A stretch of 64,000 nucleotides of DNA from assembly GCF_016903815.1 (NCBI RefSeq), contig NZ_CP069974.1. One strand, given 5' to 3'. The DNA comes from Escherichia coli (lineage in GTDB: Bacteria; Pseudomonadota; Gammaproteobacteria; Enterobacterales; Enterobacteriaceae). Shown in pieces: positions 57,001-63,000 of the stretch. Position numbers: made by a program. Each line of letters starts with the position of its first letter. The first letter of the stretch is position 1.

Positions 57001-60000
57001 AATGTTGATATGGCGGAACTGCTTATCCACACCCTGACTGAGCGCGTAGCTATAACTGAAGGCCATCTTTTCCGGGTGGCTTTTGCGATATTTTTTCAGC
57101 TCAGTCAGGCTGCTGAATTCCAGGACGTCCCACTCTTCCCCGGTGTTTTTTTTCTTCCCGGCAACAAGAAGCGTGTACGACGCGGTGTTAACGTGGATAT
57201 TTCGGGTACTCATCCTGCTTTCTCCTCTCTCTGGTTTTCAGCCCCCATCATCTGTTGAGTTTCGGGAGCCGCGGTTTTGACGTTTTGCGGGGACCTGCCT
57301 TTTGTTCCCTCCGGTATTCACCATCACCTTTTTGAGAACCTTCGCCGCAAGGGGCATCACTGCCACGGACGGAAACGACTGTCCGGGGGCAGACCGCAAA
57401 AGTTTTTGCCTGCTTCTGGGCAAAAAGTTTTGCGGGATGTGCATTTCACCCCTGGACTGGCGGAGACGGTTGTGGCTGTCTTTGCCCCCGGCGACAGGGG
57501 CTTAAACAGGTGAATGGCACCGGACAGAACAACGGGCAGGGACCCGCCGCAACGACGTGAAGCGCGGTTTGCGAAACGGCGTTGCCCCTTACATCCCGGC
57601 GGTCTTTTGCCGGGATGCCAGGAGCGCAGGCCACGGCGCGACAGAGGCGGCGCGACCGGAACGGTCGCTGCAAGCCAGGGGTTTTCACGCATCGGACCGT
57701 AGCGACAGCCCGAAACCGCGCCAGCGGGTTCGGCGGAGACTGGCAGGTGCGCCAGCAGCTGCCTGTCGGAGTCGGGCCTGACGACCGGATGCCGCCAGGC
57801 AGCCGGGAGCCGAAGGTGCGCGTGCGACAGGAAGTCGCTTAACGTATTGTTTTACATTGATAAAACCAGCTATCCCATTAGCTGTAGCCTACCGGGACAG
57901 GCGTTGCCGGCAACGGCGGGGTCTGAAGCTCCCGGGACAACGAGAGCCGGGCGTCAGCCCGGGTAATGCCCCGTGAGGGGCTTTACCTTGCTGCAAGCAT
58001 CATGCGGCAGGAGAGCAAGGCTGGTCAGAAGGGTTAACACATGTGAACTGTTGATAAACACCGTTATCGGCAACAGGCCAAAGATGCTGACAGGCCTGAA
58101 CCAAAAGGTACGGGGTCCGGTTGCTACCTCGCGCACAGGGAGCACATGGGCGCAGAGACCCCCGGTGAAGAGACAGAACCCGCCCTGACCCTCTGTATGT
58201 TAAGCGGAACCTGGTAAACCCGTATCGCTGCCTCACAGGCAGGTGAACCGCAAGGAACACTGTTAGCGGTGCGGGCATAGGAGGACGGAAAAAGCGAATG
58301 CCCGGCTGTAATAACCGGGATACGGGGCAGGTTCCCCGACGCGAAAGCGGGCAGACTTCCGTCTGGTCTTTAATTGCATGAAAAGCTGTAAAGCAGTCAA
58401 AAGGATATCAGCGAGATGAATACACACATCAGTGTGTCCACGATACCCCACCCGACAGGCTGGCACACCATAAACTGGAAAGCATGCCATGCCCGGGTGC
58501 GAAAGCTACAGTTACGGATTGCAAAGGCAACCCGACAGCAACAATGGCGGCAGGTCAGAGAACTACAGCGCATCCTCACCCGCTCATTCTCCGGCAAAGC
58601 CGTGGCTGTCAGGCGTGTAACTGAAAATACCGGTAAAAGGACACCCGGTATTGACGGAAAAATATGGCACACACCGAAGGAGAAATGGGAAGGAATATGC
58701 AGCCTGAATCTGTGTGGTTACAGGCCACAGCCACTACGGCGAATACATATCCCAAAATCAAACGGCAAAACGCGACCGCTGGGCATACCCACAATGAGGG
58801 ACCGGGCCATGCAGGCACTGTGGCTGCTGGCTCTGGAACCCGTATCCGAGACCACTGCTGACCATAACAGCTATGGTTTCAGACCAATGCGCAGCACGCA
58901 TGACGCCATTGAGTCCATTTTTCTGCGGATGAGCCAGAAAGTATCGCCCAAATGGATACTGGAGGGCGATATTAAAGGGTGCTTCGATAACATCAGCCAT
59001 GACTGGCTGCTTTCCCATATTCCGATGGACAGGAGACTGCTTAAAAAATGGTTGAAAGCAGGTTACATGGAAAGAGGCGTGTTTAACCATACGAACAGCG
59101 GGACACCGCAGGGAGGCATCATATCCCCTGTTCTCGCCAACATGGCTCTGGACGGACTGGAGAAGGAACTGATGCAAACGTTCAGGAAAAGTGGTTATCA
59201 CAGTGCAAAGCACCAGGTGAATTATGTGAGATATGCTGATGATTTCATCTGTTCAGGCAGCTCCCGTGAATTGCTGGAAAATGAGGTCAGACCACTGATT
59301 GCAGCTTTCATGCGCGAACGAGGGCTGGAACTGTCGGAAGAAAAAACAGCGATCACACATATAGATAAAGGCTTCGACTTTTTAGGGCAGAACGTCAGGA
59401 AGTACAACGGTAAAATGCTGATTAAACCGTCGAAGAAAAACCTGAAGAACTTCCTCTGTAAAGTCAGAGAAATAATTAAACGCAATCCGACGCTCCCGGC
59501 ATGGAAACTGATAGGCCAGCTAAACCCGGTGATCCGGGGATGGGCTACCTATCACCGACACGTCGTGGCGAAAGAAACATTTAATTATGTCGACACCCAA
59601 ATCTGGCGAGCTATATGGCGATGGTGTGTAAGACGGCATCCCCGGAAAGGATTGCGGTGGATCGCCGGACGATACTTCTCCTTTGAAGGCAGGCGCTGGA
59701 TCTTTAAAGCCATAACCCCGGAAGGGAAAATTCTGACACTCTTCCGGGCAATGGAAACACCGATAAAGCGCCATATAAAAATCAAAGGCGAAGCAACACC
59801 ATACACCCCCGGAATGGAAATCTACTTTGAACGTCGTCTGGATCTAATCTGGAAAGGCAAATCAAAGAAGATGAAGACAGTAGTTCAACTCTGGAAGAGG
59901 CAGGGGAAACACTGTCCGCAGTGCGGACAACTCATAACCAACCAGACCGGATGGAATATACATCACCGGATCAGGAAAGTTATGGGCGGCAGTGACGAAC

Positions 60001-63000
60001 TGACCAATCTCGAGTTGTTACATCCGAACTGCCACCGACAGTTACACAGCAGGGAAGCCGGTGCTCACCGAAAGCACTTATAAAGGCTTGAGCGGAGTGC
60101 GGGGAAACTCGCACGCTCCGTTCTTAGGGGGCGGCGGCGCAGCAATGTGCCGCTGCTACCCGACCCGGCAGACAGGACAACACTGCAGTAGTCAGAATCA
60201 GAGCAGGAAGAAAAAGAGAATAATCACAGGGAAGGTGATGTGATTTCTGACAGGCCATAACCAGAGAAGGCGGGGGAAAAGAACGGGCGCCGCAGGCGCG
60301 CGTTCATCCCCGTTCCTGAAGGGAAACGACCTTCCTGAAGTCAGGTTGTTCATGCCCGTACAACATCAGCAAGGAGAAAGGGGCTACCGGCGAACCAGCA
60401 GCCCCTTTATAAAGGCGCTTCAGTAGTCAGACCAGCATCAGTCCTGAAAAGGCGGGCCTGCGCCCGCCTCCAGGTTGCTACTTACCGGATTCGTAAGCCA
60501 TGAAAGCCGCCACCTCTCTGTGTCCGTCTCTGTAACGAATCTCGCACAGCGATTTTCGTGTCAGATAAGTGAATATCAACAGTGTGAGACACACGATCAA
60601 CACACACCAGACAAGGGAACTTCGTGGTAGTTTCATGGCCTTCTTCTCCTTGCGCAAAGCGCGGTAAGAGGCTATCCTGATGTGGACTAGACATAGGGAT
60701 GCCTCGTGGTGGTTAATGTACTGACCCCAAAAAGTTGGACAGTTAAACACGAGGCATATAGGTCTGATTCCGATATTCAATTGGAGTCAGACCTTTTAAT
60801 TTCAGGCTAATTCTTCTGCTGTTGTAGTATTCAATATATTCCGTAACAGCATCCTTCAGTTCGCTTATATTACTGAACTCATCAAGATAAAAACACTCCG
60901 ACTTTAAGGTTCCAAAGAAACACTCCACCACAGCATTATCCAGACAATTGCCTTTTCTGGACATGCTTTGTTTAATACCATGTTCTTTAAGGATATTTTG
61001 ATATCTTCTCATACGATACTGCCATCCCTGGTCAGAGTGCAGAACAGGATGCTCGTGAGGATTAAGCTTTTTGAATGCCTGATCGAGCATATTCTCAACC
61101 ATGTTCATCACTGGTCTTTCCGAAAGGCTGTAAGAAATAACTTCGTTGTTGAAGAGATCTATTACTGGAGACAAATACAGCTTGCGCCCATTGACTGCAA
61201 ATTCAGTAACATCGGTAACCCACTTCTCGTTTGGCCGCGTAGCCTTGAAATCTCTTTGGAGAACATTAGGGGCGGTTTGCCCTACCTCTCCTCTGTAAGA
61301 GCGGTATCGCTTGACCTTAATCGCTGCTTTAAGTGAGAGGGTTCCCATCAGGCGCTGAACAGCTTTATGGTTAATCTGTTTCCCTTCTCGATGAAGAGAC
61401 AGCGTTACCCTACGGTATCCGTATCGGCCTCTATTCTCGTGATAAATCTCACTAATACGCTTTTTAACGTCCGCATACTTGTCAGGCTTGCTGAGAGCCT
61501 TTAGATGATAATAAAACGTACTGCGCGGTATCTCCGCAGCCCTGAGAAGCTCATCAAGAGGATAAAACTGCCTTAGCTCGTTGAGTACTTTCACTTTTTC
61601 GTGGGATGAGCTAAGGCTTTCAGCTTTTTTAGATACATAAGCCGCGTTTCAAGAAATCGAACTTGCCTTTCAAGATCCTCAATGCGTCGGTCTTTTGACA
61701 GCTCCAATGCTGATGCCGCTTTTTCTGGATCAACTGATATTGCAATGTTTCTTTTGGTGCCAATCTTGAGCGCGCGTAAACCAGCTTCTCCGCGCTCTTC
61801 ATAGACCTTCAGCCACCTGGCTACAGAACCACTACCAGCAAGCATAAAGTGAGCAGCAGCCTGATTAAGGGACATGTGCTGCTCGATCACAGCTTTCACG
61901 ACCTTAATACGCAACTCTGGATCAGCACTAACGCCTTTAGGTTTGGGAATTAAACCTTTTTCTCCATGTTTTTCATAGAGGGCAACCCATGTCCTGACCT
62001 GGGTTCGGGGGACACCAAAACGTGCCGAGATGATCCTGTAACCATCATCAGTTGTGAAGTAGTGATTCACGACTTCAAGGCGCTTTTCAAAAGGGTATTT
62101 TGGCTTTGACATATTAGGGGCTATTCCATTTCATCGTCCAACAAAATGGGTGCAGTACAAGCGCCGGGCACATCATAGCCCATATACCTGCACGCTGACC
62201 ACACTCACTTTCCCTGAAAATAATCCGCTCATTCAGACCGTTCACGGGAAATCCGTGTGATTGTTGCCGCATCACGCTGCCTCCCGGAGTTTGTTCGGCA
62301 CCATCCACCGCTCCATCTCACGAACAGCATGACCGACCACCCTTGCCGCCATACCAGCCTCTGCGATGACCTGCCAGAATGGCATATCCTGCCACTGCCA
62401 GCGTTCCATTCCGGCCAGTGACGGAAAACGCTCGCCCCACTGCCAGAACAGGGTTTCCAGGTCATGCTCTGCCACCCGGTCACTCCAGCGTGCATGCCAG
62501 CTTCCGACTGTTTCCGGCGAATGGAATGCCAGTTCGATTTCAGCCTGAGCGACCAGCGCCTGGTACGCACGGGCTTTCTGCTCTGCCTCCCTCGCCTGCT
62601 GGCGGCTGTACTTCTGCATGACCAGCGCGGATTTATGGCGACTGCGTTCCCTGACACGAAACCGCACCGACGGGAACAAGCGCTCTGCTGCATCACCGGG
62701 AAGGGGAAGGAGGCAGACCTCGCCCTGTGTTTCAATCAGCACATCGATGGCATACAGCCACTGAAGACGGTTGCCGTGCAGTTCTTCTGCGGTCAGGGAC
62801 GGCATGAAAAATCGCAGGTCAGACAGCGATATCCTGCGGCTTCCGTTCAGACAGCGGAAAAACGCCCCCGCATACGGATATTCAGCCAGCGTGTTACCCT
62901 GATGGCGGCGTTTTTCGGTCTCCGCCACCGCCCGCCATGCGGCCTGTTGCTCTGTGCTGAGAGGAACCAGTGCCTGTGAACGTGCGCTCATGCCTGACCT

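Follow-up and report, generated by a model that had tools for sequence, protein, structure and literature searches.

A chloroplast-like group II intron within the Frpo/ssi repeat of an Escherichia coli plasmid leading region

EcI5 (E.c.I5), carried by pO157, is the model CL1/IIB1 group II intron and targetron. It is located in the leading region of an F-like plasmid, at the far end, sense to the leading genes and stopping 3 nt before a start codon. E.c.I11 of pEC958, which encodes a 633-aa protein, likewise has the sense orientation relative to the leading genes; it is situated within the leading region of an IncF plasmid, directly adjoining a Frpo-type repeat, between a Frpo2-type repeat and ssb. 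The CL/IIB1 lineage also includes TeI4h (T.el4h; PDB 6ME0/6MEC), a chromosomal intron of the thermophilic cyanobacterium Thermosynechococcus with relaxed protein recognition of its target (PMC2882425). Ll.LtrB of Lactococcus pRS01, a mobile intron of the IIA/ML lineage that also resides on a conjugative element and encodes an RT-maturase-HNH protein, is inserted in sense orientation inside a relaxase gene, and its splicing is needed for conjugation (PMC6003770). Moreover, a 2,343-bp intron of pHN7A8-type FII-33 (F33:A-:B-) plasmids has been published as a lineage marker and described as 'inserted in an ORF for a 77-aa hypothetical protein' (PMC8765060, PMC6052338). FII-33 plasmids occur with or without this intron, the empty sites being uninterrupted, and both forms conjugate (PMC8765060).

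Extent and identity of the intron

An earlier note on the window, a 64,000-nt stretch of E. coli contig NZ_CP069974.1 (assembly GCF_016903815.1), had proposed that it contains a complete-looking mobile group II intron, with its 5' end at either 57816 or 57822. The covariance search with Rfam models recovered ribozyme domains on both sides of the ORF, which encodes the RT, maturase and HNH domains as proposed, all of them scoring far above chance, and the following elements were delimited:

57822–60164, plus strand: complete group II intron of 2,343 bp (5' GUGCGA ... CCCGAC 3'), from the scarless empty site, Rfam matches and published length
57866–58015, plus strand: part of ribozyme domain I (Rfam RF02012, group-II-D1D4-7; 121.8 bits, E 3.5e-25)
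58416–60083, plus strand: intron-encoded protein of 555 aa, with RT (YADD at aa 273–276), maturase/X and HNH endonuclease (aa 500–546) domains
60088–60164, plus strand: domains V–VI (Rfam RF00029; 60.1 bits against a gathering score of 40, E 2.6e-09)
60090–60123, plus strand: domain V in the RF00029 alignment, with the catalytic AGC at 60091–60093
60127–60161, plus strand: domain VI in the RF00029 alignment, with the bulged branch-point A at 60158, 7 nt from the 3' end

Pairwise comparison with the intron-less plasmid pEC-16-37-NDM-5 (L001) set the insertion site exactly: the empty site reads ...GAAGGTGCGC|CCGGCAG and is scarless, with no target duplication at the intron ends 57822 (GTGCGA...) and 60164 (...CCCGAC). 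The choice between the two candidate 5' ends thus falls on 57822, the GTGCG at 57816 being the exon IBS1. The consensus ends 5' GUGYG and 3' AY are both present (GUGCG at 57822–57826, ...GAC at 60162–60164). An uninterrupted 100-nt target site was found in at least 2,635 plasmid records, which makes the intron a presence/absence polymorphism. Judged by its sequence features, 57822–60164 is an intact and presumably mobile group II intron.

The 555-aa ORF matched the Pfam domains RVT_N (2.5e-32), RVT_1 (1.6e-41), GIIM (2.7e-24) and HNH (2.2e-09), and passed the NCBIfam equivalog TIGR04416 (385 bits, cut-off 300). Its product shares the RT-X-D-HNH layout of the EcI5 protein, with 56% identity, and its best match among solved structures was TeI4h (6ME0; E 1.1e-177 over aa 12–553), the match to the Ll.LtrB protein LtrA being far weaker (E 6e-46). 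On the basis of the identity with EcI5 and of TeI4h as top PDB match, the intron is classed as chloroplast-like (CL)/IIB1.

Several identities were considered and rejected. The intron is not EcI5, given a protein identity of just 56%, nor E.c.I11, whose lineage is unrelated (34% identity across the RT core), nor Kl.pn.I5, a 1.9-kb element. Class C introns have a small ribozyme without EBS2, carry no En domain and insert after a terminator or attC stem-loop. Membership of this class was rejected as well, since EBS2 and the HNH domain are present and the IncI insertion site described below lacks the small hairpin of the IncF site. In contrast, the FII-33 intron has the same length and target sequence as that of the window. 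The copy in the window shares 99.1% identity with the common allele (e.g. L007); the 0.9%-diverged window allele shows 21 nt differences that result in only 2 aa changes, a ratio that fits selection on the protein. The intron was thus already annotated and published, so that the present identification is correct but ordinary; no published name for the 2,343-bp intron was found in the literature searched. Its presence or absence can serve as a marker of resistance-plasmid lineages, a use already made for FII-33 plasmids.

Exon pairing and the target repeat

The 5' 600 nt of the intron align with the EcI5 ribozyme at 82% identity, continuously up to the ORF start, and the domain I of both introns belongs to RF02012. 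The unbroken alignment suggests that domains II, III and IV are likewise represented between domain I and domain V. The sequences predicted to recognise the exons, and the exons themselves, are located as follows:

57808–57821, plus strand: 5'-exon target, with IBS2a A at 57808, IBS2 GCCGA at 57809–57813 and IBS1 GTGCGC at 57816–57821, from EBS complementarity
58064 or 58065, plus strand: EBS2a U, 2–3 nt upstream of EBS2
58067–58071, plus strand: EBS2 (UCGGC), aligned to the EcI5 EBS2; Watson-Crick complement of exon positions -13 to -9 (GCCGA)
58131–58136, plus strand: EBS1 (GCGCAC), Watson-Crick complement of exon positions -6 to -1 (GTGCGC)
60165–60204, plus strand: 3' exon, with IBS3 = C at 60165; the final 40 nt of the module in the alignment of repeat copies, beyond which their right flanks diverge

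All pairs with the 5' exon are Watson-Crick (EBS1/IBS1 6/6, EBS2/IBS2 5/5). EBS1 is the only perfect 6/6 complement of GTGCGC within the first 450 nt of the intron, and falls in a stretch where the intron differs from EcI5 in the alignment. Exon recognition resembles that of IIB introns in part: EBS2 and the U ahead of it can be aligned with their EcI5 counterparts, and A-14 (IBS2a) and C+1 (IBS3) are common to both targets. The EcI5 EBS2 is ACCAG at positions 253–257, followed by A258 (PMC8643678), and the EBS2 of each intron is complementary to its own exon. EBS1 and EBS2 differ between the two introns, hence their targets differ. Whereas the target of EcI5 (an intron spanning NC_002128 35666–38071) carries C-18, C-17, A-15, A-14 and T+5, that of the window has G-17, G-15 and C+5, and therefore the protein-recognised positions C-17, A-15 and T+5 of EcI5 are not conserved.

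The earlier note had placed the insertion at an intergenic or terminator-proximal site. Terminator targeting, a habit of class C introns, did not stand, and the intergenic location holds only in part: the homing site sits within a leading-region repeat of about 630 bp, the Frpo/ssi module, and is thus not simply intergenic. Two landmarks define its position:

55075–55096, plus strand: oriT nic-region motif TTTGCGTAGTGTGTGGTGCTTT, an exact match with none expected by chance
57242–57591, plus strand: homologue of the F-plasmid ssiD/Frpo1 single-strand promoter, forming the left part of the target-holding repeat module (351 nt aligned with D90178 at 96.6% identity, the D90178 sequence being that given in the supplement of PMC11541004)

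In the window, the intron is inserted into the copy of the repeat that is closest to oriT, with ssiD/Frpo1 on one side and hok on the other, whereas in FII-33 plasmids it occupies the distal repeat. A distance of 230 nt separates the homing site, which is on the transferred strand, from ssiD, and the minimal single-strand promoter is left intact. A 76–80-aa ORF runs through the site but probably does not represent a gene: it is Ala/Arg/Gly-rich, and its N-terminus is not conserved from one repeat copy to the next. A small GC hairpin at the site was rejected as a recognition feature, since the 3' arm of this hairpin is missing at the IncI site. Through its repeat copies, the module presents the intron with as many as three identical targets on a single plasmid; in pEC958, three perfect 26-nt targets lie within the repeat that includes ssiD. 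The position of this conserved target, in the Frpo/ssi module of IncF and IncI leading regions, is the modest new point of the analysis, and explains how one intron occupies several positions in two plasmid families.

All neighbouring genes lie on the minus strand, with ORFs on the left and hok (60478–60636), psiA and psiB on the right. The intron, on the plus strand, is antisense to them and cannot be spliced from leading-region transcripts, as the earlier note had anticipated; unlike Ll.LtrB, it interrupts no known gene. From knowledge of the F/R100 TraI nic site, we take TTTGCGTAGTGTGTGGTGCTTT to be the nic site; its location on the plus strand makes this the transferred strand. The intron sense strand is thus the transferred strand, which would preclude transcription from the incoming single-stranded DNA, and early entry into the recipient appears to offer the intron no evident expression advantage.

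Distribution and insertion sites

The intron is present in approximately 1,000 PLSDB plasmids, including 491 Klebsiella records, and 326 of the 5,426 complete E. coli genomes carry it. In 997 of 1,024 plasmid records the copy shows an identity of 99% or more. Copy number overstates the number of homing events, since a small number of expanding plasmid lineages account for most copies. Five or more different insertion sites were recognised:

Hok-proximal repeat, as in the window: the rarer occupied site, in 66 PLSDB plasmids by a replacement query, the 250-nt 3'-junction query being unable to separate empty from occupied sites
Distal repeat, beside antirestriction and DUF1380 genes
IncI plasmids, beside ssi3/ssb
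Chromosomal rfbK-wzm junction
Chromosomal ABC ATPase gene

One and the same repeat copy is used in about 94% of the occupied plasmids. IBS2, GCCG(A/G), is kept at all insertion sites, with G at -9 in both chromosomal ectopic sites, while IBS1 is kept at the repeat sites, nearly kept at the two chromosomal ones and mismatched at the IncI site, where pairing with EBS1 is poor in the standard register. The retention of IBS2 at the IncI and chromosomal copies indicates ongoing mobility, as far as sequence comparison can tell. In pYL3, several intron places per plasmid were rejected as multiple homing events, the copies deriving from an 18-kb tandem duplication. A scan of GTDB species representatives with the first 38 nt gave only two matches, in a Streptomyces assembly and an Erysipelotrichaceae MAG, both on short contigs with the same plasmid flanks and with no new sites; these probably represent contamination or mis-binning.

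Probable retrohoming and alternative explanations

We regard it as highly probable that the element is a functional mobile CL/IIB1 intron, a relative of EcI5 and TeI4h, which retrohomed into its cognate DNA site. Counting against this reading are the promoter scan described below, which gave no plus-strand sigma-70-like site ahead of the intron, the concentration of copies in a few plasmid lineages and the poor EBS1 pairing at the IncI site. Between the retrohoming and retrotransposition left open by the earlier note, the perfect EBS1 and EBS2 pairing with the 5' exon argues for the former and against the latter, as well as against random insertion. Following the standard mechanism of the CL/IIB1 lineage, we infer that the intron would be transcribed from the plus strand and spliced with the help of its own maturase. 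The resulting lariat-protein particle would recognise ...A-GCCGA-AG-GTGCGC|C... via EBS2a, EBS2, EBS1 and EBS3 and reverse-splice into that strand, whereupon the HNH domain would nick the opposite strand and the RT would copy the intron by target-primed reverse transcription. The target is part of the conserved Frpo/ssi repeat found in F-like and IncI leading regions, which offers the intron as many as three targets on very widespread conjugative plasmids.

A free-standing or defence-type RT gene (retron/DRT-like) without a ribozyme is suggested by weak, sub-threshold matches of the protein to retron and DRT families. This reading is vanishingly improbable and was considered refuted: Rfam domains I and V–VI flank the ORF, the EcI5 ribozyme alignment extends through the 5' part, the entire 2,343 bp is precisely missing from empty sites, and the group II equivalog scored above its cut-off while every defence family fell far below its own. 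That the intron is an inactive relic, spread passively as its host plasmids expanded clonally and recombined, is very unlikely, even though the single repeat copy common to most occupied plasmids, many of the FII-33/K. pneumoniae lineage (PMC8765060), and the tandem duplication in pYL3 would agree with it, as would the consensus scan from 56867 to the ORF, which revealed no sigma-70-like promoter in plus-strand orientation. Against a relic stand the intact ORF and full set of ribozyme motifs, the insertion sites themselves, two of them chromosomal ones that mimic the target, the identity of the rfbK copy to the common plasmid allele, and the new junctions of an LtrA homologue that arose at the identical position in two populations of an evolution experiment (PMC10104558 and its supplement).

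Homing might instead be coupled to conjugation, the intron RNA reverse-splicing into the incoming single-stranded plasmid in intron-bearing recipients. The IBS strand is the plus strand and hence the T-strand, the target is among the first 2.7 kb that reach the recipient, the module works as single-stranded DNA and is strongly structured in this form (z = -5.2), and reverse splicing into ssDNA independently of protein-mediated melting is established in other group II introns (PMC2882425). However, all target copies are direct repeats, so that their orientation amounts to a single observation; EcI5 and E.c.I11 are oriented oppositely in the same regions; the protein retains an intact HNH domain, in keeping with double-stranded targets; insertion at the ectopic sites in the chromosome requires no conjugation; and folding predictions for the ssDNA place part of the site in base pairs. 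We therefore consider this route unlikely, and it is equally doubtful that the intron is specialised on the Frpo/ssi single-strand-promoter module, using the T-strand as substrate and reverse-splicing seconds after entry. If homing into the T-strand did occur, conjugation would directly drive the spread of the intron between IncF and IncI plasmids.

Retrohoming into a cognate DNA site, the preferred explanation, leaves the current understanding of group II introns unchanged. Intron copies constitute added 2.3-kb repeats in a region important for plasmid establishment. F-like leading regions have been colonised by at least three unrelated group II introns (the window intron, EcI5 and E.c.I11), a pattern that may merit a systematic survey. 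Finally, pCFS3313-2, the reference plasmid cited for the LtrA homologue of PMC10104558, carries the intron described here.

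Architecture and boundaries of the intron

A scan of the whole window with Rfam models returned two group II matches, both on the plus strand: RF02012 (group-II-D1D4-7; 57866-58015, 121.8 bits, E 3.5e-25) and RF00029 (domains V-VI; 60088-60164, 60.1 bits, E 2.6e-09). These matches, from a covariance-model search proposed in the earlier note, surround the intron-encoded ORF. The following features were assigned:

57822-60164, plus strand: complete group II intron
58416-60083, plus strand: intron-encoded protein of 555 aa, the single ORF between the two Rfam matches
60090-60123, plus strand: domain V, AGC triad at 60091-60093 (RF00029 alignment)
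60127-60161, plus strand: domain VI, bulged A at 60158, 7 nt from the intron end (RF00029 alignment)

The protein contains the Pfam domains RVT_N, RVT_1, GIIM and HNH, a YADD motif at aa 273-276 and HNH motifs spanning CPQCG to HPNCH. It scored 385 bits against TIGR04416 (NCBIfam equivalog of group II RT/maturases; cut-off 300), in agreement with the reverse transcriptase, maturase and HNH endonuclease originally read from the sequence. RefSeq labels the gene ltrA. A retron or DRT identity was rejected, every such model scoring far under its own cut-off.

Thousands of plasmids matched the flanks of the region only. In one of these intron-less plasmids, pEC-16-37-NDM-5, the flanks meet as ...GAGCCGAAGGTGCGC|CCGGCAGACAGG, and this junction therefore fixed the insertion site and the ends of the intron at 57822 and 60164 (2,343 bp, GTGCGA to CCCGAC, without target duplication). 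A one-base ambiguity (a C) was settled because the intron start is the canonical GUGCG. Of the two 5' ends first considered, 57822 was thus retained, whereas 57816 belongs to the intron-binding site IBS1 of the exon.

Known relatives and target recognition

The intron-encoded protein and its EcI5 counterpart share 56% identity, and the EcI5 ribozyme shares 82% column identity with the 5' 600 nt of the intron. EcI5 was placed in pO157 at 35666-38071, coordinates that concur with Table S3 of PMC3522654, as do its target positions with PMC8643678. The top solved-structure match was the TeI4h protein (6ME0; E 1.1e-177), with LtrA far behind; EcI5 and TeI4h are both CL/IIB1 introns (PMC2882425). 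The mechanism would be the standard one of IIB1 introns that contain an endonuclease, with steps presumed from the family. E.c.I11 of pEC958 was rejected as an identity, since its RT core shares only 34% identity, and no name for the intron in the group II intron database was found.

In EcI5, the exon-binding site EBS2 is ACCAG (253-257), followed by A258 (PMC8643678), and pairs with the EcI5 exon CUGGU. The aligned bases here, UCGGC (58067-58071), are the Watson-Crick complement of 5' exon positions -13 to -9 (GCCGA), and a U lying two to three nt further 5' corresponds to EBS2a, exon -14 being A. EBS1, GCGCAC (58131-58136), is the sole perfect complement of exon -6 to -1 (GTGCGC) in the first 450 nt; at EBS1, such complementarity was established for the present intron alone. 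Because the exon-binding positions differ between these relatives, yet EBS2 of each ribozyme is complementary to its own exon, the sequences strongly suggest that the intron occupies its own cognate homing site. The earlier note, which had considered retrohoming or retrotransposition into an intergenic or terminator-proximal site, was correct in substance.

A homing site within the plasmid leading region

The region to the left of the intron comprises the following features:

55075-55096, plus strand: R100-type nic motif, TTTGCGTAGTGTGTGGTGCTTT
57242-57591: 96.6% identical to D90178 (F-plasmid ssiD/Frpo1; sequence printed in PMC11541004 supplement)
~57235 to 57821 plus 60165-60204: module of ~630 bp interrupted by the intron

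The left flank is a homologue of ssiD/Frpo1, a single-strand promoter and priming signal of F, and the insertion point lies 230 nt past it. The module occurs three times in pEC958, each copy with a perfect 26-nt target, and its copies match the repeats of Frpo1/Frpo2 type known from F (PMC9849209). The insertion leaves intact the ~260-nt Frpo fragment sufficient for function (PMC11541004 supplement).

The whole Frpo/ssi module is predicted to fold much better than its shuffled versions (z = -5.2). When folded in silico as single-stranded DNA, the empty site (3101-3127 in pEC-16-37-NDM-5; window 57808-57832) forms a small GC hairpin, GCCGGG-AGCCGAAGGTGCG-CCCGGC, with the insertion point one base inside its 3' arm. 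RefSeq annotates a 76-80-aa hypothetical protein across the site (window 57785-60258, minus strand; pEC958 15267-15509 and 23336-23566); an Ala/Arg/Gly-rich C-terminal frame is common to the repeat copies and the N-termini differ or are absent. Within this GC-rich repeat DNA, the ORF is probably spurious. The neighboring part of the repeat, homologous to ssiD, appears in some records as a frameshifted ssb pseudogene.

Since the nic motif lies on the plus strand, this is the transferred strand, according to the established organization of F-like oriT regions. Both the intron sense strand and the target strand are then the transferred strand, and the intron begins ~2.7 kb from nic. It should therefore be untranscribable from incoming single-stranded DNA, and Frpo-driven or other leading-region transcripts would run antisense to it. 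No plus-strand promoter for the intron was detected.

Two unrelated group II introns, E.c.I11 (pEC958 16631-18678) and EcI5, are present in other F-like leading regions. Both are oriented the opposite way, in sense with the leading genes, and each stops 3 nt short of a start codon (E.c.I11 end 18678, ssb ATG 18682; EcI5 end 38071, next ORF start 38075). E.c.I11 lies in sense just downstream of a Frpo2-type repeat and could therefore be transcribed from a single-strand promoter upon recipient entry.

Distribution, signs of mobility and neighboring elements

The first 400 nt of the intron matched 1,024 PLSDB records (997 at ≥99% identity; Escherichia 492, Klebsiella 491). The 100-nt 5' junction was found in 1,010 records at ≥80% coverage and the uninterrupted 100-nt site in at least 2,635. 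A junction query separating the repeat copies found the hok-proximal arrangement of the window in 66 PLSDB records; other occupied plasmids mostly carry the intron in the distal repeat, beside antirestriction and DUF1380 genes. The window allele differs from the common one by 21 nt and just 2 aa. Short contigs assigned to Streptomyces morookaense (contig139) and an Erysipelotrichaceae MAG carry the intron with enterobacterial plasmid flanks, most likely through contamination or mis-binning.

The 400-nt query matched 326 of 5,426 complete E. coli genomes and 49 places on chromosomes. Two ectopic chromosomal copies lie at the rfbK-wzm junction (...CGAGCCGGTGGTGCGT|CTGAAC) and within an ABC ATPase gene (...GGCGCCGGAGGCGCGC|TGGGCG); the IBS2 plus IBS1 pattern is preserved at both sites, apart from wobble pairs or single mismatches. 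The same intron, with 3 nt differences, is present in the IncI-gamma/K1 plasmid pCFS3313-2 (41479-43821), where it adjoins ssi3/ssb in the leading region, antisense to the leading genes. There the 5' exon equals the IncF target from -7 leftwards, the homology ending 6 nt short of the insertion; IBS1 (TGGGCG) and the 3' exon are unlike the IncF target, and the register must be shifted by one base for this IBS1 to pair well with EBS1. For the LtrA homologue of their IncI plasmid, Benz & Hall referred to pCFS3313-2, and they reported new intron junctions at an identical position in two evolved populations (PMC10104558, supplement).

The intron is an already-known element, since a 2,343-bp intron was published for FII-33 plasmids, whose sublineages are defined by its presence or absence (PMC8765060), further records exist (PMC6052338, PMC10654068) and RefSeq annotates its gene. 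Plasmids with and without it both conjugate (PMC8765060). The literature searched yielded no earlier description that places the target within the Frpo/ssi repeat and assigns it to the transferred strand; this placement constitutes a descriptive refinement.

Beyond the intron, hok and its mok/sok leader are separated by an IS150 (1,443 bp, 60717-62159; minus-strand ORFs 61591-62112 and 60743-61594), inserted ~80 nt upstream of the start codon of hok (60636); its ends showed no clear target duplication of 3 bp. The Rfam sok model scored 43 bits in the window (gathering score 59). The same insertion is present in pEC-16-37-NDM-5 and absent from pPK8566-tetX. RNA-OUT, the IS10 antisense RNA, gave two identical matches (36651-36720 and 37723-37792) on the same strand, 1,072 nt apart, unlike the inverted arrangement usual for the IS10 pair of Tn10. 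Other Rfam matches in the window fell in four regions (20352-20433, 26451-26541, 30731-30916 and 34882-34958), comprising the attI/aminoglycoside leader of a class 1 integron, CopA (IncFII replication control), and AS-pc02 and AS-traI, antisense RNAs originally described on pHK01.
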